From positions 10,075 through 74,074 of the forward strand of contig JAFSDN010000088.1 in assembly GCA_017436245.1 (NCBI GenBank): a DNA stretch of 64,000 nucleotides. Reading direction: 5' to 3'. The DNA comes from Clostridia bacterium. Its GTDB lineage: Bacteria > Bacillota > Clostridia > Monoglobales > Monoglobaceae. The notes below the pieces were generated by a model, which was given only the letters and a program-made list of their open reading frames with translations, was not told the origin of the DNA and made no database searches. Below, piece after piece: positions 9,794 to 58,447 of this stretch. A program made the translations under genes and the position numbers. Positions within the stretch are counted from its first letter, which is position 1, and every line of letters starts with the position of its first letter.

Positions 9794-9816
9794 AATTTTC
9801 ACCTTTCTGACATTCG

Positions 9817-25799: not shown

Positions 25800-27494
25800 T
25801 TAGTTTCTGGGAAGCCTTAAAGTGACCTCGGTATACTCATTTTCCTTACTTTCTATGTATAGACCATAAGCGTTTCCGTAGTTGAGACGTATGCGGTTCT
25901 GAATGTTTATAAGCCCGATTTTTGCGTTGTCTTTAACCGGTATTGGTGATGAACTGTCTACGGAGGCAAGCTCCAGATTAATTCTATCAAGTTTTTCCTT
26001 GGGTATACCTCTGCCGGTATCTGAAATTTTTATTGTAAGGACATTTTTTTCTGTTGTGGCAGAGATGTTGATGTTGACCCCTTTTTCGTCATAACCCTCA
26101 ACACCGTGCTTGAAAGCGTTTTCAACAATGGGCTGAAGCAACATTTTGAGGCACAGAATTTCTTCTACGTCTTCGGAAATATCAAAAGTGACGGTGAATT
26201 GCTTGGGATAACGGAAAGCCATAATGTTCAGATAGTTTTCAACAATTTCAATTTCATAAAACAACGGAACATTTTTTGCAGCAGATGTGCTGTAACGAAG
26301 CATTTTTGCAAGGGAAACTGCAATTTTGGTAACTTCGGGTGTATTTGATGTGTTGGCAATTCCGCAAATACAATCCAGAGTATTGTATATAAAGTGTGGA
26401 TTAACCTGTGCCTGCAATGCATATAATGCGGCATCCTTCTGGGCGATTTCGCTTTCGTACAGCCTTTGTTGGGTTTGAAAAATATGTCTTGAAAGTTTTT
26501 CGATGTTATCCACCATCTGGTCGATTTGAACTGCAATTATTCCGATTTCGGTCTGACTTTGCAGATTAATTCGTTCGCCCTTGTTGGTCAGAGAGTAGTT
26601 ATTCAAAAATTTCAGAATTTTTTGAATGGGAATATGTATGTTGGTTGTTATGCGGCGATGAGTAAAAATAAACATCAGCGGTATCAGAACAATTTCCAAC
26701 AAAAGAAGCGCAAGAACAATGGAAATGGGAAAGCTGAACGGCATACTGCTGTGAATAGCCCAGTTACCTCCGGGCAGGCTTCTTTTTTCGGAAAAATATT
26801 CCTTGTTTTTATAGTTTTTTGGAGTCAGCACAATGTCGTTTTTGTCACTGCTTTCCTCCCTGAGAAAAAAGTAGGTTTTCTTGTTGGTTGAACCGGGGTT
26901 CATAATCAGCTTGGCTGTGTTTATATTTCCCACCACGATGCAGGTTCCTATGGGTTTTATGTCTACGGCATCGGTTGAGGGGATTTTAATGTCACGACTA
27001 AGGAAAAAATAAACCTCATTGTATAGAGCGTTTGATACAGTAAAAAAAGTGAGAGCATCATTCTTTTCATGGCATGATGAATGGGTTTCACGGATGCTTT
27101 CCAAAAGCTGTGGGCTAATTTCATCGGACATATAGCTTATGTTGTTGTTTTTGTCAATGCAAACGGCAAAAAAATGCTCCTGAGATATATCACGGGTATT
27201 CTGAACCAGATTGGTGAATGATTGTTGTGTTTCGCGGCGATTTTCGGAATTTGGGTTAAGAAAATATGCTGTTGTTTTGGGGGATTTGGAAATGGAATCC
27301 AAAAGAGTGTTGCCGATTTTGATTTTTTGCTCCAGATTACGGTGAACATATGTGAGCTCATTTGAAAATTCGATTTGTTCACGGTCAATGCTTTGAAGGT
27401 ACAAGATGCAAATACAGATGATTTCTATAATGAATATTATAAGCCATGTGCTTATGGTGGAAAGATTTACGATGTTTCTTAAATTGGGTTTCAT
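25800..27494 (-). CDS. Sensor histidine kinase, YesM/LytS-type
   Basis: 564 aa. It has an N-terminal TM segment, a periplasmic-type domain and a second TM segment. It carries the His_kinase motif VNPHFIYNTLDCI and the HATPase motif ISDTGRGIP. Confidence 0.85.
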   Translation of the reverse strand: MKPNLRNIVNLSTISTWLIIFIIEIICICILYLQSIDREQIEFSNELTYVHRNLEQKIKIGNTLLDSISKSPKTTAYFLNPNSENRRETQQSFTNLVQNTRDISQEHFFAVCIDKNNNISYMSDEISPQLLESIRETHSSCHEKNDALTFFTVSNALYNEVYFFLSRDIKIPSTDAVDIKPIGTCIVVGNINTAKLIMNPGSTNKKTYFFLREESSDKNDIVLTPKNYKNKEYFSEKRSLPGGNWAIHSSMPFSFPISIVLALLLLEIVLIPLMFIFTHRRITTNIHIPIQKILKFLNNYSLTNKGERINLQSQTEIGIIAVQIDQMVDNIEKLSRHIFQTQQRLYESEIAQKDAALYALQAQVNPHFIYNTLDCICGIANTSNTPEVTKIAVSLAKMLRYSTSAAKNVPLFYEIEIVENYLNIMAFRYPKQFTVTFDISEDVEEILCLKMLLQPIVENAFKHGVEGYDEKGVNINISATTEKNVLTIKISDTGRGIPKEKLDRINLELASVDSSSPIPVKDNAKIGLINIQNRIRLNYGNAYGLYIESKENEYTEVTLRLPRN

Positions 27495-28237
27495 TCAGAA
27501 ACTCCCCCTTGTTGACGATACAGCTTTGGCGTAACTCCAAAATGCTTTTTGAAAATCTTATTGAAATATACATAATCATAATGCAGAAAATCTGCAATTT
27601 CGCTTATCCACATATCACTTTTCAGCAATAGCTCAGATGCTTTTTGCATCTTTAACTTTACAACGTATTCCGAAAAGTTACAATCAAAATGCTTTACAAA
27701 AAGCTGACTGCAATATGAAGCGTTTATCTGAAACTGTTCTGCAAGCTCGGACAACTGAAGTTTTTCTATATAATGTTTGTCAACATACTGAACCAGTTTT
27801 TTGAATGCCTGACTTGAAAAGTTCTGATAATCCGTTGCCTGATGTGCAGGGCTTTGTTCCTGATCCAATGAGTTTTTCAAATCCAGCATCAGCTTTTTTG
27901 CCGCATTGCTGTCAACCGGCTTGAGCAGATAGCTGAAAACACCGTATTTTATGGATTCCTGAGCGTAAGAAAAGTCGGCATATCCGCTTATTACAACAAT
28001 TTTTATTTTAAGTCCCCGCTGGCGGATTGCTTTGATTAGGTCAAGTCCGCTGAAGCCGGGCATTTTTATGTCTGTGAACAGCACGTCAGGCTGGTTTTCG
28101 ATAATGAATTCCAGAGCGCTGCGCACGTTGGTTGTGCAAAAAGGAGTTTCAAAGTCGAATTGCTCCCAGGGAAAAACGCTTTTTGTGTTTGCAACAGACC
28201 ATACTTCATCATCTACAATTATTGCACGATATGACAT
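27491..28237 (-). CDS. Response regulator with AraC-type HTH output (YesN-like)
   Basis: It has a receiver domain (IVDDE...LFTDIKMPGFSG) and a C-terminal AraC HTH. It overlaps the kinase gene by 4 nt. Confidence 0.88.
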   Translation of the reverse strand: MSYRAIIVDDEVWSVANTKSVFPWEQFDFETPFCTTNVRSALEFIIENQPDVLFTDIKMPGFSGLDLIKAIRQRGLKIKIVVISGYADFSYAQESIKYGVFSYLLKPVDSNAAKKLMLDLKNSLDQEQSPAHQATDYQNFSSQAFKKLVQYVDKHYIEKLQLSELAEQFQINASYCSQLFVKHFDCNFSEYVVKLKMQKASELLLKSDMWISEIADFLHYDYVYFNKIFKKHFGVTPKLYRQQGGVSE

Positions 28238-28441
28238 AAAAACCCCCGTTCTGCCGCTGTGGACATTCGTCCAAACGACTCTTTGATGAAATAATTATAC
28301 AATCATTTTTTGAATTTAGCAAGCCAAAAGTGCGAATAACCAATATTTAGACATAAATTCCAAACTGGCGACTATTGCCTTTTAAAATTGGGACATTTAT
28401 AATTATATTATGAAAAAAGATGATTACAGGGAGGTAATTAT

Positions 28442-31400
28442 ATGAAAAAGGCACAATATTTTTTGATGACATTGGTATTTGTAATAAACCTGATTACTTT
28501 TCCGGTTTTTGCAGATGATTCGTTTTCGGGCAGAGAGGTGCTTTTCGGGAGCGAGTTTGACAGCTCGGATGAAGTGGACTCTCAGCGAGGTTACACTTCG
28601 GTTGAGGTAAGCGATGGAGTTGCTCAGTTTGTTTACAATCAGAACGCTTCAAATTATATGTATTCAAAAACCTTTGAGGTTGCTGCCGAAGAATGTGATA
28701 TGGTTGCAATAAGAATCAAAAGTCAGGTTGATATGGATACGGTGAAGTTCTATTACACGACAGATGCAGAGCCCGATGCCAGCTCGGACAAGGTTATTAA
28801 CTTTTCGGTTGCGGCATCGGAAGAATGGCAGACCGTGACATTGAATCCTTCCAATGAAGAAAAATGGACAGGAACCGTAAACCGTTACAGACTTACATTT
28901 GATAAGCAAGCGGCAAATACTGTGGAAATAGATTATGTGAGATTCTACGGTGCTGATTCAGAAAATGCAGACAGTGTAATCTGGCCTCAGGCTGATGAGC
29001 TGTACCCCGAACGTAAGCTGCTCAGAAGCAACGAGTTCAACAGTATGTCGGAGCTTGATGTATGGCGTGACGGCTATACATCGGTTACGGTGAAGGACGG
29101 ATATGCACAGTTTAGCTATAAACAGGGGACTTCAAACTATACATATTCGGGAACCTTCAGTATTCCTGCCGATGATTGCGACACAGTTGCAATAAAAATA
29201 AAAAGCGTAGTTGATTTGAGTGCGGTGAATTTTTATTATATGACCGATTCAGAACCCAATGCAAGCGAAACAAAGGTAATTAACTTTGCTGTGCCCGCAT
29301 CGGAGGACTGGCAGCTTATAACCCTTGATACATCGGACGAAGCAAGATGGAAGGGAAATATCACACGTTATCGCTTCAGCTTTGCGGCACCGGGCGACAA
29401 TACTGTGAAAATTGATTTTGTGAGATTTTACAGCAAGGTTTTTCCTGCCTACACCGAAGACGAAAGACAGATTTCCTATGACTTTGATGCGATTAATGAA
29501 GCAGACGGATTTTTGGGAAATGAGAATGTTTCGGACGTTGTGGCATCTGAAGGCGAGCTTTGGGCGAGAGTTATCGGTGCGGATTCCTGTTTTACGGCAT
29601 TGGCTGATTATGAAGCAAAATGTGAGGACATTCCGAGACTTCATATTGCGTATGAAAACAACACCAACGGAACTGCGGGAAAACTGTATTTCACCACCGA
29701 AGAAAATCCCGATTTCAGCGAAGAATGTTTCTTTGCCTTTGAAATATCGGAGAACTCACCGGTTGACTGTGTGATTGATACGGTTGAAAATCCCAACTGG
29801 AAAGGCAAAATCACAGGCTTGCGCTTTGTACCTACTGACGGTGAAGGCTATGTGAAAATTGACTTTTTGCGCCTTGAAAAATTCCCGTGCCAGATTGTTG
29901 TCAGAAACGGTAATGTTGAAATAAGCGGCAATCTTTACGGTATGGCAGGAAAGAACATCGGCTTCTCGGTAAATGATGAAGAAGGGGAAGTTTACAGCGG
30001 AACAGCTCAGACCGATGCTGACGGTGCATACACACTTTCCTTTTCACTTGATAATGCACCCTTTGAACCAATTGTATATAACCTTGAAATCATCGGAGAC
30101 GAGATTGACGGAATATATAAAAGGAAGATTCTGTATGTTTCAGAAGATTATGTGAGCCACGTGATTGAAAAAATAAATGAGGCAAAGAGCAATGAGGATT
30201 GGGAAGAATTGCAGAGTCTCATTGAAGATAATTACGGTGTTTTGTCGCTGAAATGTGAGTTTTTTGAAGATTTTTCTGCAAAGGGCTTGTACCTTGACGA
30301 GCTGTATGCTCTTGTGGTAAGTGACGAAGCCGTGGAGGGCTTGACAGACATTGAAGACCAGCTTGATGAGGCTGTGGTTGGAGTCCGGATAAACCACATG
30401 ACTCCGGAGGAATGGATAGCTGCCGTTGATGAATATGACGAGTATCTGAACTTCAAGACCTTGGTAATATATGAGGTGTACAGCAAGGCAACGGATTCTG
30501 TCAAAGCAGAAATTGCAAAAAGAATGGCTGACAGCAGTTACAATGATTTTGAAGAGGCAAGATTTGAGTTCCGTGAACAGAACATTCTTGTGGGACTTCG
30601 CCGTGCTGTTGGCTGGAAGGATGTAAAAGAAATTATTGATGCCAATGCAGACTTCATTGGAATTGATTTGGATAAGCTGGACAAGGTGAAGAGCGAATCG
30701 GACGTATACCGACGCCTGACAGAAAAGAACTTCTCAAAAATTGAGGAGGTTGAAACAGCCTTTGATGATGCAATTGAGGCTCAGATTGACAAGGAAAAAC
30801 CGTCGGGCTCAGGCGGCTCAGGTGGCTCAGGCGGTTCGGGCGGCAGAGGCTTTGGCGGCGGAGCGGCTTCTGTAAATGCTCCTGTGACGAATCTGAACAA
30901 TTCCCAAAAGGAAGAGGCATCGGCTGATGTGTTTACAGACCTGAACGGCTATGACTGGGCAAAAGAGGCAGTTGGTGCATTGTATGCCCAAAAGATTATC
31001 AACGGCATGGGCAACGGACGTTTTGCACCGTCTGACAGCGTCACCCGTGAAGAATTTGTGAAGATGCTTGTTTTGAAAAGGAAATTAACACTTTCAAATG
31101 ACGCTTCATTTGGCGACGTGGCAAGAGATATGTGGTATGCGCCGTATATCGGTGCTGCGGTGAAAGCCGGAATAACAAAGGGTCAGGGAACTGCCTTTGG
31201 TGTTGGACAGCTTTTGACCCGTCAGGATGCGGCAGTTATGCTTGCAAGAGCCTTTGGAATAAGCGGAGCTGAAAGCTCAATGAATTTCACTGACAATGCT
31301 GAAATTGAGGATTATGCCACAGAGGCGGTGAACCTTTTGACTCAGGCAGGAGTCTTTACGGGCTATGAGGACGGTTCGTTCCGACCCGATGCAAGCCTCA

Positions 31401-31450
31401 GCAGAGCAGAAGCTGCTGTGATTATATTCAGAATTAACGAAAGGATGTAA
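28442..31450 (+). CDS. Secreted SLH-anchored protein with three copies of an unassigned beta-sandwich-like module
   Basis: 1002 aa with signal peptide ...FPVFA/DD. It has three tandem ~150-aa modules ending WTGTVNRYRLTFD..VEIDYVRFYG, WKGNITRYRFSF..VKIDFVRFYS and WKGKITGLRFVP..VKIDFLRLE. These are followed by an Ig/CarboxypepD_reg-like segment, an acidic helical region, a GSGGSGGSGGSGG linker and a C-terminal SLH triad (FTDLNGYDWAKEAVGALYAQKIINGMGNGRFAP...). Confidence 0.8.
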   Translation: MKKAQYFLMTLVFVINLITFPVFADDSFSGREVLFGSEFDSSDEVDSQRGYTSVEVSDGVAQFVYNQNASNYMYSKTFEVAAEECDMVAIRIKSQVDMDTVKFYYTTDAEPDASSDKVINFSVAASEEWQTVTLNPSNEEKWTGTVNRYRLTFDKQAANTVEIDYVRFYGADSENADSVIWPQADELYPERKLLRSNEFNSMSELDVWRDGYTSVTVKDGYAQFSYKQGTSNYTYSGTFSIPADDCDTVAIKIKSVVDLSAVNFYYMTDSEPNASETKVINFAVPASEDWQLITLDTSDEARWKGNITRYRFSFAAPGDNTVKIDFVRFYSKVFPAYTEDERQISYDFDAINEADGFLGNENVSDVVASEGELWARVIGADSCFTALADYEAKCEDIPRLHIAYENNTNGTAGKLYFTTEENPDFSEECFFAFEISENSPVDCVIDTVENPNWKGKITGLRFVPTDGEGYVKIDFLRLEKFPCQIVVRNGNVEISGNLYGMAGKNIGFSVNDEEGEVYSGTAQTDADGAYTLSFSLDNAPFEPIVYNLEIIGDEIDGIYKRKILYVSEDYVSHVIEKINEAKSNEDWEELQSLIEDNYGVLSLKCEFFEDFSAKGLYLDELYALVVSDEAVEGLTDIEDQLDEAVVGVRINHMTPEEWIAAVDEYDEYLNFKTLVIYEVYSKATDSVKAEIAKRMADSSYNDFEEARFEFREQNILVGLRRAVGWKDVKEIIDANADFIGIDLDKLDKVKSESDVYRRLTEKNFSKIEEVETAFDDAIEAQIDKEKPSGSGGSGGSGGSGGRGFGGGAASVNAPVTNLNNSQKEEASADVFTDLNGYDWAKEAVGALYAQKIINGMGNGRFAPSDSVTREEFVKMLVLKRKLTLSNDASFGDVARDMWYAPYIGAAVKAGITKGQGTAFGVGQLLTRQDAAVMLARAFGISGAESSMNFTDNAEIEDYATEAVNLLTQAGVFTGYEDGSFRPDASLSRAEAAVIIFRINERM

Positions 31451-31452
31451 GT

Positions 31453-34095
31453 GTGATGCGAATGAGTTTTGGTATGAGAATTGTTGCTTCGGTTTTGGTT
31501 TTTGTGCTTTTTGTATCTTGTTTGGGCGTTATGGCAGAGGATATTTATACCGAATCTGATTTGTCCGACTTCAAGGAGAATGTTCGGTTTTTGACTGCCT
31601 TTGATTTGGTTGACAGTAAGGGCAGAGAGGCGGCAACAACCGTTAAACGTGCTGACTTTGCCGAAATTATGATTAAGTATCTGGGTTATGACAACATGAT
31701 ATATGACGGAGAGCTTTTTTCGGATGTTGCTGACAGAAAAAGTGCTGTGTATACCATGGTTCAGCTTGGCTTGATAAACGGATACCCCGACGGGAGCTTT
31801 CGTCCCGACGACAATGTGATGTATGAAGAAGTGGTCAAGGTTTTGGTTACGGCATTGGGCTATCATATGAAGGCAGAGGCTGAAGGCGGTTATCCCCACG
31901 GTTATCTGATGTGTGCATCCACAACCAAGCTCACAGAGGACACCGACGGAGGACTTGGCTCAATTCTTACATATTTTGATTTTGTGCAAATGCTGGTTAA
32001 TGGAATGTCGGTTGACCTGATGGAGCAAAGCATCAGCTCGGACAACGTGACATACACCGTGACACCCGGCAACACATGGCTGAAACAACGTTTTATGGCG
32101 GAAAAACGCCGTGGAATTGTTACCGGAACAAAGGGTGTGGACCTGAACGAGCAGAGCAAGACATGGGAAACGACAATCACTGTTGATAATGTTATTTATA
32201 AAATTGAAGAAGATTGTGAGCATCTTGTTGGCTGTTATGTTGAGTTTTATCCTGATAACGAAAACTATATCAGATATATAAAGGAGCTGGACAACACAAA
32301 ATTTGTGTTTACGGCAGAAGAAATTCAGAGTTATTCGGACAAAACCTATGAGGTGTATGACATTGCGGCAAACAAGGAACGCAAGTATACGCTGGCATCG
32401 GATGCGTATGTCGTATTCAACGGCAGTTCGGCAGAAAGCCTGACCATTGAGGACATGATTCCAAAGTACGGAACCGTGACCCTCATCAACAACGATAAGG
32501 AAAGTGCTTTTGACGTTGTTATTATTGAGAGTTACGACATTTATGTGGTAAAAAATGTGGATGCTGAGGACAAAAGAATTTATTATGAAAATTCGGACGG
32601 AGAATTTCTTGACTTTGCAAAGGCAGAGAGATTGAGTATTGCAGATTCAACGGGCAAGGAGATTCTCTTTGAAAAGATTCCTGCATCAGCGGTTCTGAGA
32701 GTTAGTTTTTCAAAGGACGGCACAGCGGCAAAAATAATTATCAGCCAGAGTCGTGTTAACGGCACGGTTACAAAGATTGTAAGCGACGGTGCGGACAGCA
32801 GTGTGTTTATTGATGATGTGCCGTATAAAATTGCACAAACCGTGTTCCCATTGGAAAAATGCAAAATCGGCATGAGCGGAACATTCAGACTGGATTCGGA
32901 AGGTCTCATTGTTAAGTTTGAGGAATCAGCAGACAAATATTCGGTTGGCTGGTTGCTTTCGGCAGGGATTGAGGAGGGCTTTAATCAGCCCTTAAAGCTG
33001 AGAGTGTTTGATGTTTCGGGACAGATTCTTGTTCTGAATACGGCAAAAAAGGTTAACATTGACGGATTAAAGGGCAGAAATTATGCAGAAGTTCAGGAAA
33101 TTCTGAAAAAAGGCACAAACAGCATTATGCAGCAGATGATACGCTTCAAGCAAAATGCTTCGGGCGAGGTTTATGAAATTGACACGCCATATAACAATGC
33201 TCCTGCTCTGGGCGACGGTTATCTGTCGGCAAAGCCCGAAAACGGCGAAAGTGAGTATGGCTTCAGACTCATTTATTCGGGAAGTCTGGGTTATTATGCA
33301 AGGCTCAATACCTTGGGCGGAAGAATAAATGTTTCAGGCAATACACCGATTATAAATATTTTTGGCGATGATGAAAGAGACTGGAAAGCAACAACCGTTG
33401 CAGGACTTACCGACACCAGAGGCTACAACATCAAGGCATATTCATTTGGTACTGACGAAAGATTTGCAAGTGTGATTTTTATTAGCGAAAGTATGTCGGG
33501 CGGAAATGCAAGAGGCGTTATTTCAGGTGTTGAAACCGTCCTTGATATTGACGGAATTCCTGAATATGAATTTGTTGTTCAAACACAAACACACGGCACT
33601 TTGCATTTGCGTTCCAAAGAAAATGTTGCAAAACCTTATAAAGCCGATGCAAGTAACACAAAGAAGTATGCAATTGAAGTCGGCGACATTGTTGAGTGTA
33701 CATTTACGGGCAACAATGCAGATTCCTTTGCGATGATTTACAAGTATAGTACGGGTGAGCTTCCTGCAGGATATACAAGTTCGCCGGGAATAGGTCCGGG
33801 AGAAGCTCATGAAAGATATTCCTTTGGTACAGTATACTCTCAGGAAAAAGGCTATATCAATATCACAAATGTGGATTTGGCAGGCGGAGCTGTTCCCACG
33901 CAGGAACAGCTTGAGTCACATTGCTGGTCGGCATTTACGATGATGAAGGTTGAAGAGGTCCGTGGCGAAGTTAAGGTGACAAATTCGGTGACAGCGGCGG
34001 ATATTCTGGATTATAAAGCTGCCGGAAGTGCGGCATCAAAAGCATTTGTTGTGACAAACTGGGAATTCCCGAGATTTATTGTTATTTATGAATAG
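31453..34095 (+). CDS. SLH-domain surface protein, paralog of the 21684-24548 product
   Basis: 880 aa with a signal peptide and N-terminal SLH repeats (FSDVADRKSAVYTMVQLGLINGYPDGSFRPDD). It shares a GGYPxGY motif and colinear downstream blocks with the other protein (e.g. AYVVFNGSS...KYGTVTLINNDKESAFDVVII versus PVYIYNGKF...KTGNLILLDTDVNNVYDIVFV). The start is GTG 31453 or ATG 31456. Confidence 0.8.
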   Translation: MMRMSFGMRIVASVLVFVLFVSCLGVMAEDIYTESDLSDFKENVRFLTAFDLVDSKGREAATTVKRADFAEIMIKYLGYDNMIYDGELFSDVADRKSAVYTMVQLGLINGYPDGSFRPDDNVMYEEVVKVLVTALGYHMKAEAEGGYPHGYLMCASTTKLTEDTDGGLGSILTYFDFVQMLVNGMSVDLMEQSISSDNVTYTVTPGNTWLKQRFMAEKRRGIVTGTKGVDLNEQSKTWETTITVDNVIYKIEEDCEHLVGCYVEFYPDNENYIRYIKELDNTKFVFTAEEIQSYSDKTYEVYDIAANKERKYTLASDAYVVFNGSSAESLTIEDMIPKYGTVTLINNDKESAFDVVIIESYDIYVVKNVDAEDKRIYYENSDGEFLDFAKAERLSIADSTGKEILFEKIPASAVLRVSFSKDGTAAKIIISQSRVNGTVTKIVSDGADSSVFIDDVPYKIAQTVFPLEKCKIGMSGTFRLDSEGLIVKFEESADKYSVGWLLSAGIEEGFNQPLKLRVFDVSGQILVLNTAKKVNIDGLKGRNYAEVQEILKKGTNSIMQQMIRFKQNASGEVYEIDTPYNNAPALGDGYLSAKPENGESEYGFRLIYSGSLGYYARLNTLGGRINVSGNTPIINIFGDDERDWKATTVAGLTDTRGYNIKAYSFGTDERFASVIFISESMSGGNARGVISGVETVLDIDGIPEYEFVVQTQTHGTLHLRSKENVAKPYKADASNTKKYAIEVGDIVECTFTGNNADSFAMIYKYSTGELPAGYTSSPGIGPGEAHERYSFGTVYSQEKGYINITNVDLAGGAVPTQEQLESHCWSAFTMMKVEEVRGEVKVTNSVTAADILDYKAAGSAASKAFVVTNWEFPRFIVIYE

Positions 34096-34105
34096 GAGGA
34101 ATAAG

Positions 34106-38173: not shown

Positions 38174-38190
38174 GTGTTAAGATTTAAAAG

Positions 38191-38330
38191 GACTACCCCT
38201 CAGTCACCTTGCGGTGACAGCTCCCCTGACAAGGGGAGCCGGGAGGACTTACGGTGTTTCAGCTTGCCTCCCCTTGTAAGGGGAGGTGGGTTGCGGAGCA
38301 ACTCGGAGGGTCTTGACGTAACTGAGGGAG
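38191..38330. repeat. GC-rich multi-stem intergenic element
   Basis: An outer 8-bp pairing, ccctcagt (38196-38203) with actgaggg (38321-38328), encloses four hairpins. These are gtcacc-ttgc-ggtgac (38203-38218), gctcccct-gaca-aggggagc (38220-38239), cctcccct-tgta-aggggagg (38267-38286) and gttgc-gga-gcaac (38290-38302). Confidence 0.7.
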
Positions 38331-38396
38331 TTCGCAATAAATAAGCAAAAAAATAAAATAAATATAAAAATTTTATACAAAAAGGAGTAGAAATTT

Positions 38397-40094: not shown

Positions 40095-40228
40095 GAACAG
40101 AGTGTGGAATGACTACCCCTTCTCCTCAAGGAGAAGACTACAAAGAAATGTAAAGTTTAAATTGTTACAAAGGAGTAGGGGTAGTTGATAACAAATTTTA
40201 AATTTTATGATTAAGGAGGAGACAAACC

Positions 40229-41701: not shown

Positions 41702-41724
41702 ACAGTATTGATTTTGGAATAGGG

Positions 41725-42696: not shown

Positions 42697-42711
42697 AAAG
42701 GAGAGAATGTT

Positions 42712-43635: not shown

Positions 43636-43646
43636 ACCAAATAAAA

Positions 43647-43706
43647 TCGCTTATAGCATTATGTTGTTATCCGGCCATAACATTTATTGCTATAAGCGAA
43701 TTTTTT
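43647..43706 (+). terminator. Long hairpin plus T-tract downstream of the ABC permease genes
   Basis: The outer perfect 12-bp arms are tcgcttatagca/tgctataagcga. The inner region pairs imperfectly around ccggcc. The hairpin is followed by ttttttacattttt. Confidence 0.7.
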
Positions 43707-43736
43707 ACATTTTTATACAAAGAAGGGAATAAAAAT

Positions 43737-48332: not shown

Positions 48333-48369
48333 GTGCAAAATTGAGAAAATATATTCAGGAGGAATAAAA

Positions 48370-49818: not shown

Positions 49819-49837
49819 CAAGAAAGGAATGACGAAA

Positions 49838-52594
49838 ATGAAGATGCACGTAATATCAAACACACATTGGGACAGAGAACACAGACATTCCTTCCCTGCA
49901 ACCCAATTTATGCTCACAGAGCTTATGGACGAGCTGATTGAGATAATGGAAAATGACGAAAATTACAGGTTTTTCACCCTTGACGGTCAGAGCATAATGA
50001 TTGACGATTATCTTGAAGTAAAGCCTCATATGAAGGAAAGATTGGAAAAACTCATAAAGGACGGACGAATTCTAATTGGTCCGTGGTACAGCCTTGTGGA
50101 CTGTTACAGCGTAAATCAGGAAAGTATCGTAAGAAATCTGCTCACGGGCAAGAAAAAATGCGAGAGTATTTCGGATGCAATGAAAATCGGCTATTCAATT
50201 TTCTCATTTGGTCAGATTGCTCAGCTTCCGCAGATATATTCGGGCTTTGGAATTAAGGATGTGTTGTTCTATAAAGGCTCAAACGCAAGGGTATTTCCAA
50301 AGAGCGAATTTATATGGAATGCCCCTGACGGAACAGCGGTTCTTGCCAACAGACTTGGCAACTACAAGCGTTGGAACTTCTCGTTTTGCTTTACTATGCC
50401 TGTGATTTTTGGCGGAACACCAACAAAGCTCGGCTGGGATTCAAAATTCAGTGAGAATTACCGTTTGTGCCATATGATTGATGAGGGCAAAAAGCATTTT
50501 TATGCCAACGAAGCATCCCCCGACAGAAGAATCAGAACAGAAGAAATTGATGGGGCAATTGATGCGCTGATTGAGGATACCGCGGCAAGTAATTCGGAGA
50601 ATGTTCGTATTGGCTTTGACGGAACAGACTTCATTCCTCCCACAAGGGAAGTGCCCGAAGCAATAAGAATTGCAAACTCAATGCAGGACAAACTGGAGCT
50701 TGTTCATTCAAACCCCGTGCTGTATTTTGAGGATTTCAGGAAGGACGTTAATTTGGACGGACTTCAAAAGTATTGCGGTGAGCTTCGCTATGGCCCCGTT
50801 GACCACTTGCACAGCGAAACAATGGGAAGCAATATTGAGCTTAAAATTGCAGACTTCAAGGCGGAAAACAAGCTGATTAACATTCTTGAACCCCTTAATG
50901 CATTCTCAATGCTTTCGGGGGGTGCATACGACAAGGAACAGCTTGAACACGTGTGGAAGAACCTTTTCAAGACCCACGCCCACGACTCAATCCACGGTTC
51001 GGGCGACCCCCATATAAAGACGGATAATTTGAATAGACTTGAACAGATTAACGAGATGGAGGATTACCTCATTCGCAGAGCTTGCGAAAATGTGTGCAGA
51101 GAAATCAACGTTGAGGGATTGGCTGATAATGAAACGGGTCTTGTGGTGTTCAATACCTGCCCCTATGAAAAGAGTCAGGTTGTGACGGTTTATGCTGACC
51201 TTCCACTTGAGGATATTCCCGAAAACCCCGTGATTTATGACGGTGACGAGAGGGTTGAGGTTTATTACAGCTCTCAGGAACAGTTCACCATGGCAATGAT
51301 AAACCGTTCAAACCGTCCCAAGAGCGTGAGATGCGTAAGGGTGAAAATGACGGCATATGTAAAGAATATTCCTGCAATGGGCTACAAATTGCTGAAATTA
51401 TCGTGGACAAAGGGCGACCCAACAAAGAATCCTGCACCCTTCCCTCCGGGAGTGTTCCCCTATAACCCAATCGGCAAGGGGGCAGATGTTCTTGACAACG
51501 GACTGTTGAGAGTGAGCGCAAATGCTGACGGAACACTCTCTGTATACGATTATTCTGCAAAGAGAGAGTATAACAATCTTCACTATTTCACAGACGAGGG
51601 CTGTAGCGGCGACTTCTGGGTTCACAGACAGCCGAGAGACAACAGCGCATATTCCTCAAAAACATCGGTGAAGAGCATTTCAATAAAGGAAAATTCGGGA
51701 CTTAAAGCAACTCTTGAAATTCAGTACGAAATGGAAATTCCAAAGGGAGTTTCAGCCGACGGCAACAAACGTTCAGAAGTTTTTGAAAAGCTGATAATTA
51801 CAACGGACGTTACTCTTGAAAAGGATTCAAGACGCCTTGACTTCAAAACACAAATACAGAACAATTCAAACAATCATCTGCTCACAATGGTTATTCCCAC
51901 GGGAGTGCAGACAGACGAGGTTTTGTGTGACAGTGCATTTGAGCAGAGAAGAAGAGCAATCGGCAATATTTCGGACAACAACGGCAGACGTGGTGACGAG
52001 CTTTTGAGATTTGCTGTTCAGACCTTTGCGGATGCGTCTGATGAAAAGGGCGGCGTTACCCTCATAACACAGGGCAACAAGGAGATGTATGCAGAGGACA
52101 GCGGCGGATGTAGCTTTAATGTGACAATGCTCAGAGCCGTTTCGGGCAAGTTCCCTGTTCATGATGATTGTTTCCTGACCTTTGATAACGAAAACGCAGA
52201 TTGCAAGGGCACTTTTGATACGCAGTATGCAATTTATTTCCACGATGCAGAGGCGAACGTTTCAAAGGAGAGCAAAAAATATCTCACAAGCCTTTCTGTT
52301 ATGCAGTTGGGTCACGGCATGGGCGGAAGTCTCCCCGCAGAATGTAGCTTTGTTGGCACAGACTTTGAGCTTTCCTGCGTGAAACGTGCAGAGAATAAAA
52401 ATGCAGTTGTTCTGAGATTGTATAACCCCACAGACAAAGCTCAAAAGGGCTGTGCCTGGGTGAGAGAAGCAAAGAGTGCGAGTCTTTGTTCTCTTGGGGA
52501 GGATGTGCTTGAAGCATTGACGGTTGAAAACGGAAAAACACAGCTTGAAATAGAGCCGTTTAAGATTGTGACGGTTATGTTTGATATGGAATAA
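49838..52594 (+). CDS. Glycoside hydrolase family 38 alpha-mannosidase-like protein
   Basis: It carries the GH38 N-terminal metal-site motif HVISNTHWDREHR, followed by GPWYSLVDCYSVNQESIVRNLLTG. It is about 918 aa and has no signal peptide. The start was chosen among three in-frame ATGs (49829, 49838, 49844) by spacing from GAAAGGA. Confidence 0.8.
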   Translation: MKMHVISNTHWDREHRHSFPATQFMLTELMDELIEIMENDENYRFFTLDGQSIMIDDYLEVKPHMKERLEKLIKDGRILIGPWYSLVDCYSVNQESIVRNLLTGKKKCESISDAMKIGYSIFSFGQIAQLPQIYSGFGIKDVLFYKGSNARVFPKSEFIWNAPDGTAVLANRLGNYKRWNFSFCFTMPVIFGGTPTKLGWDSKFSENYRLCHMIDEGKKHFYANEASPDRRIRTEEIDGAIDALIEDTAASNSENVRIGFDGTDFIPPTREVPEAIRIANSMQDKLELVHSNPVLYFEDFRKDVNLDGLQKYCGELRYGPVDHLHSETMGSNIELKIADFKAENKLINILEPLNAFSMLSGGAYDKEQLEHVWKNLFKTHAHDSIHGSGDPHIKTDNLNRLEQINEMEDYLIRRACENVCREINVEGLADNETGLVVFNTCPYEKSQVVTVYADLPLEDIPENPVIYDGDERVEVYYSSQEQFTMAMINRSNRPKSVRCVRVKMTAYVKNIPAMGYKLLKLSWTKGDPTKNPAPFPPGVFPYNPIGKGADVLDNGLLRVSANADGTLSVYDYSAKREYNNLHYFTDEGCSGDFWVHRQPRDNSAYSSKTSVKSISIKENSGLKATLEIQYEMEIPKGVSADGNKRSEVFEKLIITTDVTLEKDSRRLDFKTQIQNNSNNHLLTMVIPTGVQTDEVLCDSAFEQRRRAIGNISDNNGRRGDELLRFAVQTFADASDEKGGVTLITQGNKEMYAEDSGGCSFNVTMLRAVSGKFPVHDDCFLTFDNENADCKGTFDTQYAIYFHDAEANVSKESKKYLTSLSVMQLGHGMGGSLPAECSFVGTDFELSCVKRAENKNAVVLRLYNPTDKAQKGCAWVREAKSASLCSLGEDVLEALTVENGKTQLEIEPFKIVTVMFDME

Positions 52595-52608
52595 AGGTGA
52601 AAAGCACT

Positions 52609-53535
52609 ATGAATGAAATACTTAAAAATGAATACTTTGAAAGCGGAAAGGACGGGGTCAGAAGAATACTGACCCCCGACGACAAAAAGATTGACATAGT
52701 TGAGTTTGATGACAAAACCCTTTGCTATGTGAAAAGCGGTATGGGTTATCCTGCAATCTATCCCATGCACGAGACACATTTTGAGCCCAAGGCAGAAGCA
52801 GTTTTAATGGACCTTGACGGAACATCAGTACACAGCGAGAGCTTTTGGATGTGGGTCATTGAACAGACGACCGCACGTCTTTTGGGAAAAAGTGATTTCA
52901 GATACGAAAAAGAGGACGAGCCCTTTATTTCGGGGCACTCCGTTTCGGAGCATCTGCAGTATATGATTAATAAGTACGCCAAGGGCGGAAGTCTTGAACT
53001 TGCACGACAGTATTATTTTGAGATTGTGAATCACCAAATGGACGAGATAATGAAAGGCAGAGGCAAGCAGGATGCTTTCACTCCTGCGCCAAACCTCAAA
53101 GAATTTTTGCTCACATTAAAGTCAGAGGGCATAAAAATCGGGCTTGTTACATCGGGACTCTATGAAAAGGCGATGCCGGAAATTATCTCGGCATTCAAAC
53201 AGCTTGATATGGGCGACCCAACAGAGTTTTATGACGCAATAATCACAGCAGGTCAGGCACTCCGAAAAGGTCAGACGGGAACTTTGGGCGAGCTTGCTCC
53301 AAAGCCCCATCCGTGGCTCTATGCGGAGACCGCAAGGGTTGGTCTTGGAATACCCTTTGAAAGACGGCACAAGGTAATTGGTATTGAGGACAGCTCCGCA
53401 GGAGTTGTTTCAATTAAGCTTGCAGGCTTCAGCTGTGTTGGCATTTCCGGCGGAAATATTGATAATGCCGGAGTGGACGAGCTGTGTGATTACCGTGCAG
53501 ATGGGCTTTTGGATATTCTTGATGTGGTTTTATAA
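52609..53535 (+). CDS. HAD-superfamily hydrolase (subfamily IA, beta-phosphoglucomutase/phosphatase-like) with an N-terminal extension
   Basis: It carries HAD motif I LMDLDGTSVHSE, motif II GLVTSG and motif IV GIEDSSAGVVS. About 60 aa precede motif I. The start ATG 52609 follows AAGGTG; an alternative GTG start lies at 52597. Confidence 0.75.
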   Translation: MNEILKNEYFESGKDGVRRILTPDDKKIDIVEFDDKTLCYVKSGMGYPAIYPMHETHFEPKAEAVLMDLDGTSVHSESFWMWVIEQTTARLLGKSDFRYEKEDEPFISGHSVSEHLQYMINKYAKGGSLELARQYYFEIVNHQMDEIMKGRGKQDAFTPAPNLKEFLLTLKSEGIKIGLVTSGLYEKAMPEIISAFKQLDMGDPTEFYDAIITAGQALRKGQTGTLGELAPKPHPWLYAETARVGLGIPFERRHKVIGIEDSSAGVVSIKLAGFSCVGISGGNIDNAGVDELCDYRADGLLDILDVVL

Positions 53536-53572
53536 GCTAAAATATTAAATTACATAATTTGAGGTGAAATGA

Positions 53573-54331
53573 ATGTTGTTGCAGGCAATTGATATGCATA
53601 TGCACATCAATCACGGAAGTATATACGATACACAGGTCAGTGAAGTGTATACCGCCGACCTTGATGAGCTCAGAAAAATAAGCAAGGGTACAGGGATTGA
53701 AAAAATGTTCTGTTCAACCTTTGCATCGGTTATCACCAACGAGGCAATTGAACAGGAAAATGAGTATCTGATGAATATTGTCAAATCCACAGACGACCTT
53801 TATTAGTGGGTTGTTATTGACCCCAGATGCGACGGAACCTTTGAACAGGCAAGGAAAATATTAAAGTCAGGGAAGTGTGTGGGTATAAAGCTACATCCCT
53901 ATATGCACAAATATGACCTCATGGAGTTTGGCGACAAAATATTTTCCTTTGCTGCAGAGCTTGAGACAATTGTGTTGACGCATCCGATGACCGAGTTTTT
54001 GACTGACTGAAAAATTCTGACTTTTGCGGATAAATATCCTGAAATGACCTTAATTATTGCTCATCTGGGGAGCAAAGAATTTGTTGATGCGGTTGAATTT
54101 GCAAAGCATGGAAATGTTTATACCGATACGTCGGGAATTGCAAGCTCAAATAATAAAATAATTGAGTATGCGGTGAACCGCATCGGTTCTGAGAAAATTC
54201 TCTTTGGTACAGATACATATTCTGCGGCGTTTCAGCGGGGAAGAATTGAATTTGCTTTGATTTCCGAGGAAGACAAGGCGAATATTCTCAGATATAATGC
54301 AGAGAGGCTTTTTGGTAAGGTTTTGAAATAA
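53573..54331 (+). pseudogene. Amidohydrolase-2 (PF04909-like, TIM-barrel metal hydrolase) gene interrupted by two in-frame stop codons
   Basis: A single reading frame runs from the metal motif IDMHMHINHG to ...TLIIAHLG...FGTDT...LRYNAERLF. It is broken only by TAG at 53804-53806 and TGA at 54008-54010, and has no frameshift. Confidence 0.7.
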
Positions 54332-54360
54332 ATAGAATTAAAAAAGGAGAATCAATTATT

Positions 54361-55794
54361 ATGGCACACAAGAAACAGTTATTACCATTCAGAAATGCAA
54401 TCAGAGCGGAAGAAGTTCCTGAATATATGAAGCGATGGGAAGAAAGACTTTCGGGTTTTGTAAGAATTGAGGAAATTGGAAATTGCAGCGGATTTCCAAT
54501 TTTTGCGGCATTCTTCACTGACCCGTCCGTTGATGACAAGCATAAACAGATTGCGCTCTTTACGGCGCAGCATTCCGGAATGGAAATCACGGGAATGACC
54601 ACACTTCTCAGCCTTGGCAACTATCTGGCATCGGGTGCAGATGATGCAAGGGAAATTATGAAAAAACAGATTGTGGTTATTGTGCCCTGCTCAAATCCAT
54701 ATTCCTATTCAAAGCTCTCTCCTGAATATCATTTTAAAAATGAAGCAGGAGTGGACGAATATATTTCCTTTAAATATGACGGAGTGAAAGACCCTGAAAT
54801 AGCACCTGCGGCTTATGCAACACAAATGCTCATTGACAGACTGAAGCCTGAGCTTCTCATTGACTGTCACGGTGTTAATTATGAACATCAGATGGTGCTG
54901 GAATCCCTTGGATATTCTGCGTTTGTTCTGAATCGTATGCACGACAGACGTTTTTGTGATGCAATTCAGCAAGGAGCGGTTGACAGAGGCTTTGGCGTTA
55001 TGAATGAAGACTTGATGCAAAAGCTCATTCCATCAGAGGAAATGTGCAAAACATCTCCGTATCGGGCACGGTTCCGACCCGGTGCAGAGGGAGGACCTTC
55101 AACGGTTTATGCCTATATAAAATATCATACTGTTGCCGCAACAATGGAAATTCATTGGGAGGAAAGCGGACTCTATCGCTTGCTTGCTGCCTTGAAGCAT
55201 GGCAACGAGGAATATCCTGTGAACATCATTGCATATCCTCAGGGACACCATGCCGTTTGTGTTGGGGGTGAAAATGCGGCAAAGACAAGAGAAAACAGAA
55301 TACGCCTGTGGCAGAATGCCGACAAAATCAGCACGGCAATTATACATCCCGAGTTAATCGGAGTCGGTGGATTGCTTGTTACAACATCAAAGGACAAAAT
55401 CCAAAGATATTTCAGGGAGCATCAGGAGGGACTTCCCATTGAAAGTCTTCTTGAAGATTTGAAGGATGAACCCAATATGGATATGGAGGGGTTAAATAGG
55501 TTTTTTGAAGAAAATCCCAATCAGCACGCCGCTCTGCATGATATGCAGGCAAGCGAAGAATCGGTATCCATGGGTGGAATGGTTATCAGGCTTGTTGCAC
55601 CCTTTGAGGATGCAAAGGAAACAAAGGTTCTGCTCAACGGCAGAGCGCTTTCAAAGGACGAATACAGCACAAAACTTGTGGAAAGTAATTATTATGTTGA
55701 AATATTGCTTCCTGACGATTATGAATATGACACGGCTCTTGCCCTGTTTACATATGACTGCAAGCATCCATACGAGGGAATACTTGAATTTTGA
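54361..55794 (+). CDS. Hypothetical cytoplasmic protein with an M14 carboxypeptidase-like N-terminal region
   Basis: 477 aa. The segments IALFTAQHSGMEITGMT...IVVIVPCSNPYSY...LLIDCHGV parallel the M14 layout (H-x-x-E, ..P..NPDG.., ..H..). The first motif, however, reads H-S-G-M-E. Confidence 0.35.
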   Translation: MAHKKQLLPFRNAIRAEEVPEYMKRWEERLSGFVRIEEIGNCSGFPIFAAFFTDPSVDDKHKQIALFTAQHSGMEITGMTTLLSLGNYLASGADDAREIMKKQIVVIVPCSNPYSYSKLSPEYHFKNEAGVDEYISFKYDGVKDPEIAPAAYATQMLIDRLKPELLIDCHGVNYEHQMVLESLGYSAFVLNRMHDRRFCDAIQQGAVDRGFGVMNEDLMQKLIPSEEMCKTSPYRARFRPGAEGGPSTVYAYIKYHTVAATMEIHWEESGLYRLLAALKHGNEEYPVNIIAYPQGHHAVCVGGENAAKTRENRIRLWQNADKISTAIIHPELIGVGGLLVTTSKDKIQRYFREHQEGLPIESLLEDLKDEPNMDMEGLNRFFEENPNQHAALHDMQASEESVSMGGMVIRLVAPFEDAKETKVLLNGRALSKDEYSTKLVESNYYVEILLPDDYEYDTALALFTYDCKHPYEGILEF

Positions 55795-55805
55795 GGAGGG
55801 CAAAA

Positions 55806-57125
55806 ATGGAAGTCAAGGTAATAAAAACTGTGAGCGGCAAAACCCCAATGACGGAATGTTCGGATATTTTGGTATGTGATGATGCGGAAAGGGAACACCC
55901 TCTTATTAATATATTTCCTGAAATTGAATTTCAGGAAATAAAGGGGTTTGGGGGAGCGTTTACCGAGGCAGCATCAACAACAATTGATAAGCTGAGCAAG
56001 GAAAACAGAGACAGAATTTTGAAGCTATATTTTGACAAGAATGAAGGGATTGGCTATAATTTCGGACGTGTGCATATGAACAGCTGCGATTTTTCGCTGG
56101 GAAATTATTCGTATGTTGAAGAAAACGACAAAACTCTTGAAAGTTTTGATATATCAAGGGATGAGCAATCTGTTATCCCCATGATAAAGGATGCAATGGA
56201 ATACGGCGAAATAACAATGTTCGCATCTCCCTGGAGTCCGCCTGCTTACATGAAAACAAACGGTCAAATGAATCAAGGGGGAAAGTTGAAAAAAGAGTTT
56301 TATGAGTTGTGGTCTGAATATTTTGCTAAATATATCAAAGAATATAAAAAAAGAGGTATAGACATTAGCATGGTTTCTGTTCAGAATGAACCAAAAGCCG
56401 TTCAGAAATGGGATTCGTGCGTATATACAGCCGAGGAAGAACGGGATTTTATCAAAGATTTTCTTGGCAAAAAAATGGCGGACATGGGCGTGAAACTTCT
56501 GTTTTGGGACCATAATAAGGAACGTGTTTTAGAAAGGGCTAAAATTGTTCTCGATGATGAAACCGAGAAATATGTTTATGGCATTGCTATGCATTGGTAC
56601 AGCGGTGACCATTTTGAACAGCTGGATATGTTCAGCAGATTATACCCTGACAAAGACATTGTTTTTTCCGAGGGATGCTATGAATACAGTCTGGGAGAAT
56701 CGGACACCGTAAAAATCGGCGAAAAATATGCACATGATATGATTGGAAACTTTAATAACGGTTGCAATATTTTCTGCGACTGGAATCTTGTTCTGAACGA
56801 AAAGGGCGGCCCTAACCATGTTGGAAATTTTTGTGATGCTCCAATTATGGCAGATACCGCAAATGATAAAGTTTATATACACGATTCTTATTATTATATC
56901 GGTCATTTCAGCAAGTATGTGCAAAAGGGCGCAAAGCGAATCGGAAGCAGCAAGTGGACATCTGAAATTGATACTGTATCATTTAAAAATCCTGACGGAA
57001 CCATTGTGTCGGTTGTGCTCAATTCAACAGATAACGAAAAAAGTTTTTGTTTTTATGTTGATGGAAAAATGTTTGAAACCAACGTGGAAGCTCATTCAAT
57101 TGCAACGTATATTTTTAGACCGTAA
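55806..57125 (+). CDS. Glycoside hydrolase family 30 (glucosylceramidase-like)
   Basis: The start ATG 55806 follows GAGGAGG. It carries the GH30 motifs GFGGAFTEAA, FASPWSPPAYMKTNG and VSVQNEP (acid/base Glu), with a nucleophile-region candidate IVFSEGC. No signal peptide. Confidence 0.85.
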   Translation: MEVKVIKTVSGKTPMTECSDILVCDDAEREHPLINIFPEIEFQEIKGFGGAFTEAASTTIDKLSKENRDRILKLYFDKNEGIGYNFGRVHMNSCDFSLGNYSYVEENDKTLESFDISRDEQSVIPMIKDAMEYGEITMFASPWSPPAYMKTNGQMNQGGKLKKEFYELWSEYFAKYIKEYKKRGIDISMVSVQNEPKAVQKWDSCVYTAEEERDFIKDFLGKKMADMGVKLLFWDHNKERVLERAKIVLDDETEKYVYGIAMHWYSGDHFEQLDMFSRLYPDKDIVFSEGCYEYSLGESDTVKIGEKYAHDMIGNFNNGCNIFCDWNLVLNEKGGPNHVGNFCDAPIMADTANDKVYIHDSYYYIGHFSKYVQKGAKRIGSSKWTSEIDTVSFKNPDGTIVSVVLNSTDNEKSFCFYVDGKMFETNVEAHSIATYIFRP

Positions 57126-57172
57126 ACAGGGTTTTGAAGCGGGGGATTATGTTGAAAAAAACGAAAACGGGA

Positions 57173-58372: not shown

Positions 58373-58402
58373 TGCTATTGTGAAAAAAATATATATTGAG
58401 TG

Positions 58403-58447
58403 AAGGAAGCTGTATCAAGTAAAGCTGATTCAGCTTCCTTTTACTTT
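58403..58447. terminator. Terminator hairpin between convergent sdaA and the amidase gene
   Basis: A 10-bp stem aaggaagctg/cagcttcctt with an 18-nt loop, followed by ttactttt. Confidence 0.6.

Follow-up and report, generated by a model that had tools for sequence, protein, structure and literature searches.

A putative glycan-utilisation locus with SLH proteins and giant secreted PF14307 proteins in a Clostridia bacterium

We analysed a stretch of 64,000 nucleotides from the metagenome-assembled genome of an uncultured ruminant-gut Clostridia bacterium of the family Monoglobaceae (contig JAFSDN010000088.1, positions 10,075 to 74,074; called the window below) and, within it, a block of genes at positions 25800 to 57125. 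This block is likely to be a catabolic glycan-utilisation locus, i.e. a Gram-positive polysaccharide-utilisation locus (gpPUL) of a monoderm member of the Clostridia, built on uncharacterised protein families. Its front end, which comprises a two-component system, two secreted SLH proteins, a giant secreted protein with a GH99-like domain (GH, glycoside hydrolase) of Pfam family PF14307 and an oligosaccharide importer of the ATP-binding cassette (ABC) type, is a recurrent cassette and not a one-off. Systems of this kind are known; the present variant is new as well as recurrent, and no new biological principle is apparent on present evidence.

Gene content and proposed working of the locus

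Genes were taken from an open reading frame (ORF) listing, domains were assigned by Pfam and NCBIfam scans, and signal peptides and the lipobox were read directly off the translations. The structured intergenic elements are given with their minimum free energy (MFE). The locus contains the following features:

25800..27494, minus strand: sensor histidine kinase of YesM/LytS type, 564 aa (PF06580, E=4e-21, and HATPase_c)
27491..28237, minus strand: response regulator with receiver and AraC-type helix-turn-helix domains, 248 aa (PF00072, PF12833)
28442..31450, plus strand: SLH1002, with signal peptide and three C-terminal SLH repeats (E=2.7e-34, three stretches)
31453..34095, plus strand: SLH880, with signal peptide and N-terminal SLH (Pfam)
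34106..38173, plus strand: G1364, with signal peptide and PF14307 (E=1.3e-12)
38185..38330, plus strand: GC-rich multi-hairpin intergenic RNA element 3' of G1364 (MFE -75.2 kcal/mol, z=-5.8)
38397..40094, plus strand: P565, with signal peptide, no Pfam match
40229..41701, plus strand: solute-binding lipoprotein of LplA type (DUF3502/PF12010; lipobox ...LTMTSCGG)
41725..43635, plus strand: two ABC permeases of LplB/LplC type (BPD_transp_1)
43647..43705, plus strand: stem-loop followed by six U residues, terminator- or attenuator-like (MFE -21.8 kcal/mol, z=-5.5)
43737..48332, plus strand: G1531, with signal peptide and PF14307 (E=2e-14)
48370..49818, plus strand: BP483, propeller protein without signal peptide (AlphaFold2 model, Foldseek)
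49838..52594, plus strand: GH38 alpha-mannosidase without signal peptide (four GH38 Pfam domains)
52597..53535, plus strand: HAD-IA hydrolase without signal peptide (HAD_2)
53573..54331, plus strand: Amidohydro_2 pseudogene with two in-frame stops (PF04909 on the last fragment)
54361..55794, plus strand: divergent M14-like metallohydrolase without signal peptide (family profile versus M14 carboxypeptidases)
55791..57125, plus strand: GH30 of SrfJ/glucosylceramidase type without signal peptide (PF02055, E=8e-73)
28532-29884, 36431-38170 and 46041-46420, plus strand: X-module stretches (local profile)

This content largely bears out a preliminary description of the block made from its sequence alone. 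The block is indeed opened by a divergent YesM/YesN-like pair (His_kinase/HATPase_c and receiver/AraC proteins on the minus strand), which is followed on the plus strand by five proteins with signal peptides in their translations (SLH1002, SLH880, G1364, P565 and G1531). The LplABC-type importer does lie among the secreted genes (DUF3502 lipoprotein and two BPD_transp_1 permeases, 40229-43635), and a run of six genes without signal peptides closes the block, as seen from ORFs and Pfam. Only P565 had been misjudged: the supposed 565-aa fragment is an intact secreted ORF.

In the scheme that we propose, the YesM/YesN-type two-component system would switch on the plus-strand genes, and the genes of the locus would be co-regulated. 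SLH1002, with its three modules resembling carbohydrate-binding modules (CBMs), and SLH880 would sit on the cell wall as non-catalytic proteins. G1364 and G1531, which share the binding modules of SLH1002, would cut an extracellular polysaccharide internally by means of their GH99-like (beta/alpha)8 domain. The oligosaccharides would then be taken up by the LplABC-type importer, with its ATPase encoded elsewhere (a Pfam scan of the ORFs found no ATPase gene within the locus), and would be dismantled in the cytoplasm by GH38, a GH30 beta-glycosidase, BP483 (as a glycosidase or phosphorylase), the HAD protein acting on sugar phosphates and the M14-like protein acting as an amidase.

The plus-strand genes are tightly spaced, with gaps of about 35 bp at most from G1531 to an L-serine dehydratase gene that follows the block. 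Consensus promoter and terminator scans inside the locus were uninformative, and intergenic folding was more useful. Besides the elements after G1364 and after the last permease gene, it revealed a weaker one after P565 (40095-40200, z=-3.2) and a terminator-like hairpin after the serine dehydratase gene (58398-58445, z=-2.7). Both G1364 and P565 have the 10-mer GACTACCCCT 17-18 nt past their stop codons, and P565 is thus flanked by similar elements. No RNA genes emerged from Rfam and tRNA scans of the window.

The secreted giants and the SLH proteins

In G1364, two LamG/sialidase-CBM-like domains are followed by the PF14307 domain, an X module (described below), a Cu_amine_oxidN1 domain and two further X modules. 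In G1531, the order is two LamG-like domains, PF14307, one X module and a C-terminal region resembling P565. The two proteins are 34% identical over 940 aa, i.e. along their first approximately 900 residues, which hold the LamG-like pair, the catalytic domain and one module. PF14307 scores in both exceed the gathering cut-off of 25.1 bits (48.3 bits in G1364 and 54.3 bits in G1531), and the presence of a WbsX/GH99-like domain in two giants, as read in the preliminary description, is thereby substantiated. When the G1531 domain was searched against 5.8 billion proteins, every match was a PF14307 protein, labelled 'GH99-like domain-containing' by NCBI, and the best outside homologue was only 37% identical.

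The relationship of this domain to GH99 is seen in both motif and fold. In an alignment of 30 PF14307 sequences, the motif N-W-N-E-W-G-E-G-H has an invariant first glutamate and a second glutamate that is at least 90% conserved. An alignment of six giants retains the motif as W-N-E-Y-G-E-G-H with both glutamates invariant; it reads WNEYGEGH in G1364 and WDEHGEGH in G1531. The PF14307 family profile reaches GH99 chains of the PDB at E=5e-6 to 2e-3 with approximately 15% identity, and the profile alignment places NEWxEG on the GH99 segment N-E-W-H-E-G, which we take to carry both GH99 catalytic glutamates. The AlphaFold2 model of G1531 residues 385-770 (pLDDT 75.5, pTM 0.81) is a (beta/alpha)8 barrel, for which Foldseek returned 5NGW, Bacteroides GH99 and human MANEA at the top (TM 0.51-0.67, probability 1.0). 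The GH99-type structures matched include 4AD0, 4AD1, 6ZFA and 5NGW, at approximately 15% identity, and GH71 was well behind. Structural comparison of AlphaFold models thus yielded the GH99-like barrel that had been suspected for G1531, as well as a five-bladed propeller for BP483. As for membership in GH99 by sequence, the GH99 Pfam model gave no match and a single-sequence PDB search of G1531 was empty; such searches were equally empty for BP483 and the M14-like protein, and profiles were required for all three. No solved structure was found within PF14307. From motif and model, G1364 and G1531 are predicted to be secreted endo-glycanases, acting by hydrolysis within the chain.

The exact G1531 protein is encoded on a 139-kb scaffold of an ENA ruminant gastrointestinal metagenome (XIEF21-1, SAMN15829931), and NCBI lists it as a protein of a metagenome-assembled Clostridia bacterium (MBQ70976xx, IJN96_ locus tags). 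Another scaffold (L002, ENA ERZ28653886 scaffold_1958) was considered as an independent relative and rejected: it is 99.8-100% identical and therefore represents the same population in a second animal sample. There, two of the genes are broken up, G1531 into pieces of 170 and 1356 aa and GH38 into pieces of 473 and 434 aa, reflecting either strain-level gene decay or assembly error. On an 8-kb ENA contig, a 720-aa called protein (P0065) starts as a GH99-like domain and continues as the final 300 residues of a BP483 homologue (83% identity). We rejected it as a functional PF14307-BP483 fusion, as both domains are cut short where they meet; a deletion or a chimeric assembly is the probable cause.

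SLH1002 consists of a signal peptide, three X modules of approximately 140 aa, an Ig-like domain, a helical region, a Gly/Ser linker and the three SLH repeats, and it is predicted to be a cell-surface glycan-binding protein. X modules occur in three copies in SLH1002, three in G1364 and one in G1531, and those of SLH1002 are 31% identical to the C-terminal ones of G1364. Across the fetched loci (L010-L079), a local profile detected 176 copies in giants and in SLH1002-like proteins, none of them with a Pfam match. The same profile matches the roseophage R4C megatron protein (8GTC) at residues 489-626 with E=4.6e-7, a region that its authors describe as a carbohydrate-binding domain of CBM11-like topology (PMC10276861). 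Judging from this remote homology, the X modules are probably carbohydrate-binding. The earlier statement that no canonical CBM, cohesin or dockerin is recognisable is therefore correct as far as it goes and misses the X module, a remote homologue of a CBM11-like domain. Pfam scans of all proteins and of their sub-modules returned no cohesin or dockerin, with E allowed up to 5, and relaxed-threshold Pfam scans of sub-modules gave only a weak Sialidase-like CBM signal. The extracellular components do lie outside established families, as the preliminary description held: Pfam, NCBIfam and PDB searches assign them only SLH, PF14307 and that faint CBM signal.

SLH880 carries a signal peptide and an N-terminal SLH region, followed by approximately 680 aa without recognisable domain. 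Its family profile matches only the SLH regions of Sap and SpaA, over positions 31-178. The 19 homologues found are all approximately 870 aa long and come from uncultured Clostridia, and the SLH880-like gene always adjoins an SLH1002-like gene. P565 has one Ig-like domain and two beta-sandwich modules, and ends in a domain of approximately 120 aa. It corresponds to the final 548 residues of G1531, with an identity of 72% at the protein level and 76% at the DNA level. Its C-terminal 120 aa or so are 43% identical to the protein at the same position in loci L010 and L020.

Conservation of the two ends and competing explanations

A scan of genomes with G1531 alone found no relative, and an alignment of the giants succeeded as a query. 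Scanned against species-representative genomes, it gave 547 matching places, 78 loci of which were kept for neighbourhood counts. The cassette (kinase, regulator, SLH1002-like, SLH880-like, G1364-like, small secreted protein, binding protein and two permeases) keeps this gene order, with identities of 35-66%, in many metagenome-assembled genomes (MAGs) of gut Clostridia, in differing chromosomal contexts; loci L010, L011, L013, L015-L017 and L020 are examples. Kinase orthologues 37-43% identical occupy the same position in L010, L011, L013, L015 and L017, and the response regulator is 48-56% identical across related cassettes. The regulators stand either first or, in a second gene order, last on the same strand. 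Binding proteins 41-53% identical lie beside GH99-like genes in Clostridia and Paenibacillus. Permease homologues do so in 40 of the 78 loci, with 50-66% identity in close Clostridia and in Paenibacillus/Cohnella loci. This co-conservation of giant and importer, together with the domain content, fits the succession of endo-cleavage, ABC import and cytoplasmic exo-degradation already put forward in the preliminary description. The SLH pair was found in 15-20 of the 78 loci, all of them from Clostridia. Full-length relatives of the giants, 38-42% identical, occur in gut Clostridia MAGs from ruminants, mouse and human. Among cultured bacteria, Lachnospiraceae bacterium MD329, which belongs to the GM15 mouse consortium (PMC7453283), has one too. 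More distant ones (27-31%) are found in many soil Paenibacillus and Cohnella, and the LamG plus GH99-like core is also present in Planctomycetes, Verrucomicrobia and Actinobacteria. Several genomes contain two to three divergent cassettes (L020 and L046; L019, L061 and L062; L015 and L024; L048, L066 and L070).

As for the cytoplasmic proteins, the BP483 model (pLDDT 91) is a five-bladed beta-propeller with a beta-sandwich. Foldseek matched it to GH43, GH32, GH130 and GH137 with probability 1.0 at 9-14% identity, the best TM being 0.70 (GH130, 7FIP). No Pfam or NCBIfam match above threshold places BP483 in GH130, GH43 or GH32, and its profile reached the PDB only at E=0.003-0.02, on one blade. 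The family has more than 1130 homologues, spread over Clostridia, Paenibacillus and Armatimonadetes; among the 120 matches listed, a Pfam domain occurs only in two fusion proteins (P0065 and P0142). GH38 has PF01074, PF09261, PF07748 and PF17677 all above their cut-offs, with 2WYH of Streptococcus pyogenes and 3LVT of Enterococcus as best PDB relatives (E~1e-70). GH30 scores 245.8 bits with PF02055 and 60 bits with PF17189, and its nearest relatives are SrfJ (PDB 2WNW, E=1.5e-110) and human GBA glucosylceramidase (E~1e-74). The HAD protein, which has an N-terminal extension of approximately 65 aa and matches beta-phosphoglucomutase-family models far below their cut-offs, is a candidate sugar-phosphate phosphatase or mutase.

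The M14-like protein scores 16.7 bits against the PF00246 gathering cut-off of 21.6 bits. Its family profile matches M14 carboxypeptidase structures at E=7.7e-14, and PF00246 is found in 26 of 28 homologues. In the alignment, the position of the first zinc-ligand histidine (HxxE) is a serine, with a histidine one residue earlier (HSGME), and the second histidine, H170, and the candidate catalytic glutamate, E263, are invariant in the family. Judged by its family profile, the protein is probably a true but divergent M14 relative. The disruption of the amidohydrolase gene, noted earlier, proved real, and its cause is two in-frame stops (TAG at 53804-53806 and TGA at 54008-54010), no frameshift being present. 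Both stops recur in the independent assembly from the second sample (L002). Recoding as selenocysteine or pyrrolysine was rejected because the stops differ in an otherwise standard-code genome.

Several of our results weigh against the gpPUL interpretation or parts of it. The expected co-conservation of the cytoplasmic enzymes with the front end was refuted by the 78-locus comparison, in which 77 loci had no BP483, GH38, GH30, HAD or M14-like gene within 10 kb of their GH99-like gene; the conservation of gene order considered in the preliminary description thus holds for the front end and not for the back end. The neighbours in relatives are mixed (GH3, GH1, GH2 of beta-mannosidase type, GH36-like and GH88, and also oxidoreductases), so that they point to no single substrate. 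The amidohydrolase gene, which belongs to the set, is already a pseudogene. The giants have no recognisable cell-wall anchor, which makes their link to the SLH proteins a conjecture. A hairpin with a U-tract (43647-43705) parts the importer from G1531. Finally, PF14307 was named for a putative glycosyltransferase (WbsX, O-antigen), and a literature search found no demonstrated activity for any of its members.

From the hairpin and the comparative data, it would be reasonable to divide the block into two units, a self-sufficient front cassette and a lineage-specific operon from G1531 to the serine dehydratase gene with a different or partly overlapping substrate. We regard this division as possible, and rather doubtful. 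It would account for the missing back-end enzymes in relatives and for the stem-loop with its six U residues after the last permease gene, and it agrees with the joint occurrence of BP483 and M14-like genes in unrelated contexts and with L003, which keeps BP483 and the serine dehydratase (75-78% identical) beside front-end proteins of only 25-36% identity. The halves are, however, tied together by G1531 being a paralogue of G1364 and by P565 being a copy of its C-terminus, and all genes lie on the same strand with very short gaps. The hairpin and the start of G1531 are only approximately 37 nt apart, a space hardly sufficient for a promoter, so that read-through or attenuation seems more likely than a separate promoter. 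In addition, L003 too has a GH99-like gene directly before BP483, and L019 likewise has extra GH99-like genes past the importer.

Two further explanations concern what the PF14307 proteins act upon, and how. SLH proteins bind secondary cell-wall polymers, and the cassette might remodel or recycle the envelope glycans of the cell itself (secondary cell-wall polymer, S-layer glycan or exopolysaccharide) instead of attacking an external polysaccharide. The N-terminal SLH architecture of SLH880, shared with true S-layer proteins such as Sap, the MurJ-like, Wzy_C and GT4 (glycosyltransferase family 4) genes 13-19 kb upstream, and the M14-like enzyme together with a nearby amidase gene could all be cited for this. 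We nevertheless consider it unlikely, since the two-component/AraC regulator, the oligosaccharide importer and the cytoplasmic exo-glycosidases form a catabolic signature (PMC5320581). Several divergent cassettes per genome moreover suggest diversification towards different external substrates, and Paenibacillus has the enzyme-importer pair without any SLH partner, whilst in Planctomycetes and Verrucomicrobia the enzyme occurs by itself. It is still more improbable, to a degree that we can hardly credit it, that PF14307 is non-hydrolytic, i.e. a glycosyltransferase or an inactive binding domain, and that the real depolymerase is encoded elsewhere. Apart from the family name and the silence of the literature, this is favoured by the nearest fold match, 5NGW, having been deposited only as 'glycoside hydrolase-like'. 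A hydrolase is far more plausible than a glycosyltransferase because the giants are secreted, and hence without access to nucleotide sugars, and are fused to CBM-like, binding-type modules; both GH99-type catalytic glutamates are conserved, and the genes are coupled to importers and exo-glycosidases.

If the gpPUL interpretation holds, the substrate might be a mannose- and beta-glucoside-containing heteroglycan, a proposal in which we have low confidence. Mannose is hinted at by the GH38 of the locus itself, by GH38 and a mannose/lyxose isomerase in L006, and by GH2 mannosidase-like genes in Cohnella. The alpha-mannoside idea of the preliminary description remains speculative, as these pointers are mixed with GH3, GH1, GH88 and GH36-like genes. 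Members of the cassette family probably target different heteroglycans, because GH3, GH1, GH30, GH88 and GH36-like genes are neighbours elsewhere.

BP483 homologues were met in varied company. In L003, two tandem copies are present, with the GH99-like gene directly before BP483. In L006, the homologue accompanies GH38 and the isomerase, in L091 it adjoins an M14-like gene and also a GDSL esterase gene, in L008 it is found with an HpcH-type aldolase, and in Paenibacillus cymbidii with an ABC importer, a GDSL esterase and dehydrogenases. Homologues were also recorded in L007.

Outside the range of the block, ordinary chromosomal genes make up the flanks (uvrB, uvrA, a MurJ-like gene, ApbE and an amidase gene). 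The UvrB protein clusters at 90% identity with proteins labelled Ruminococcaceae/Oscillospiraceae. Two genes adjoin or resemble the locus genes:

57152..58372, plus strand: L-serine dehydratase (SDH_alpha and SDH_beta), starting 27 bp past GH30
21684..24548, plus strand: SLH954, a paralogue of SLH880 5' of the block (SLH by Pfam; 24% identity over 549 aa, E=8e-39)

The serine dehydratase gene is probably co-transcribed with the locus, which would extend the latter to 58372; its functional membership is uncertain. A serine dehydratase gene also ends the locus in L003 (13136-14347, 75% identity), where the front-end genes are strongly different. This may reflect flank synteny or a link in function; the dehydratase and the M14-like enzyme might, for example, both have to do with amino-acid-bearing glycans. 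SLH954 and a 607-aa SLH protein on the minus strand lie directly upstream of the block (19585-24548), which points to a broader SLH-protein neighbourhood. Farther upstream, by 13-19 kb, an envelope-glycan block on the minus strand (9299-15113) encodes two DUF4330 proteins, a GT4 protein, a Wzy_C/O-antigen-ligase-like protein and a MurJ-type flippase.

Relation to known systems and significance

A gpPUL minimally comprises a degrading enzyme, a transporter and a regulator (PMC5320581). The locus contains a transporter (40229-43635) and a regulator (25800-28237). As for enzymes, GH38 and GH30 are secure glycosidases, and the presumed depolymerases are predicted from fold and motif only. The gpPULs of Roseburia and Eubacterium rectale likewise combine enzymes with an ABC importer and a regulator, which can be of the histidine-kinase/AraC type, and proceed by extracellular cleavage, import and cytoplasmic degradation (PMC5320581). 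Here, by contrast, the extracellular enzymes belong to no characterised GH family, a conserved non-catalytic SLH pair stands outside the gpPUL definition, and the substrate is not readable from the enzyme set. In Paenibacillus sp. JDR-2, xylan is processed by a surface-anchored multimodular GH10 xylanase, an aldouronate ABC transporter cluster and intracellular GH67, GH10 and GH43 enzymes, and its authors speak of 'vectorial processing' (PMC4765114). The combination of surface hydrolysis, ABC import and intracellular GHs is the one proposed here; but the anchored protein of JDR-2 is an enzyme of a known family, whereas in our locus the SLH anchors are on separate non-catalytic proteins, the enzymes have no recognisable anchor and the catalytic family, PF14307, is uncharacterised.

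The giants share with GH99 (BtGH99/BxGH99 and human MANEA) the (beta/alpha)8 fold at TM 0.51-0.67 and the N-E-W-x-E-G motif. They differ in their identity of approximately 15%, in matching PF14307 instead of the GH99 Pfam model and in carrying the domain inside multi-modular secreted proteins of 1350-2600 aa, and the alpha-mannan specificity of the GH99 endo-alpha-1,2-mannosidases and mannanases cannot be assumed for them. The yeast alpha-mannan PULs of Bacteroides thetaiotaomicron reportedly comprise GH99, GH38, GH130, a phosphatase, GH76, GH92 and GH125 (Cuskin et al. 2015). A GH99-type endo-enzyme, GH38, a GH130-like propeller and a phosphatase would then be common to both. However, our locus lacks GH76, GH92 and GH125, its GH99-like and propeller proteins are fold-level relatives only, and Pfam domains of the SusC/SusD pair that typifies Bacteroidetes PULs were found in no ORF of the region. 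We treat this resemblance as a lead. The cytoplasmic GH38 enzymes of Streptococcus pyogenes and Enterococcus faecalis (2WYH, 3LVT) similarly lack a signal peptide and act after ABC import; the endo-enzyme upstream of them is an endo-beta-N-acetylglucosaminidase of GH18 or GH85, not PF14307.

A bolder reading may also be entertained, with considerable reservation. The SLH pair, the PF14307 giant and the importer might form an undescribed, modular and duplicated surface glycan-capture apparatus of S-layer-bearing gut Clostridia, accompanied by up to three new carbohydrate-active families. It is conceivable, and again doubtful, that this apparatus does in these Clostridia what the Sus paradigm describes for Bacteroidetes, and that the SLH pair marks it in genomes. 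Equally tentative is the count of up to three new families, i.e. secreted PF14307 endo-glycanases, BP483 and an M14-derived enzyme acting on glycan-linked amides.

Secreted PF14307 proteins are likely to be a new enzyme family, and showing what they cut would establish a new GH family and provide substrates for many loci that cannot now be interpreted. The BP483 family is a second large unannotated candidate enzyme family. Monoderm gut bacteria have no SusC/SusD marker, and a search for their PULs could make use of the conserved SLH pair as a handle. Since cultured carriers exist (Lachnospiraceae bacterium MD329 and many Paenibacillus), these questions are directly testable, and the locus is a good lead for enzyme discovery.

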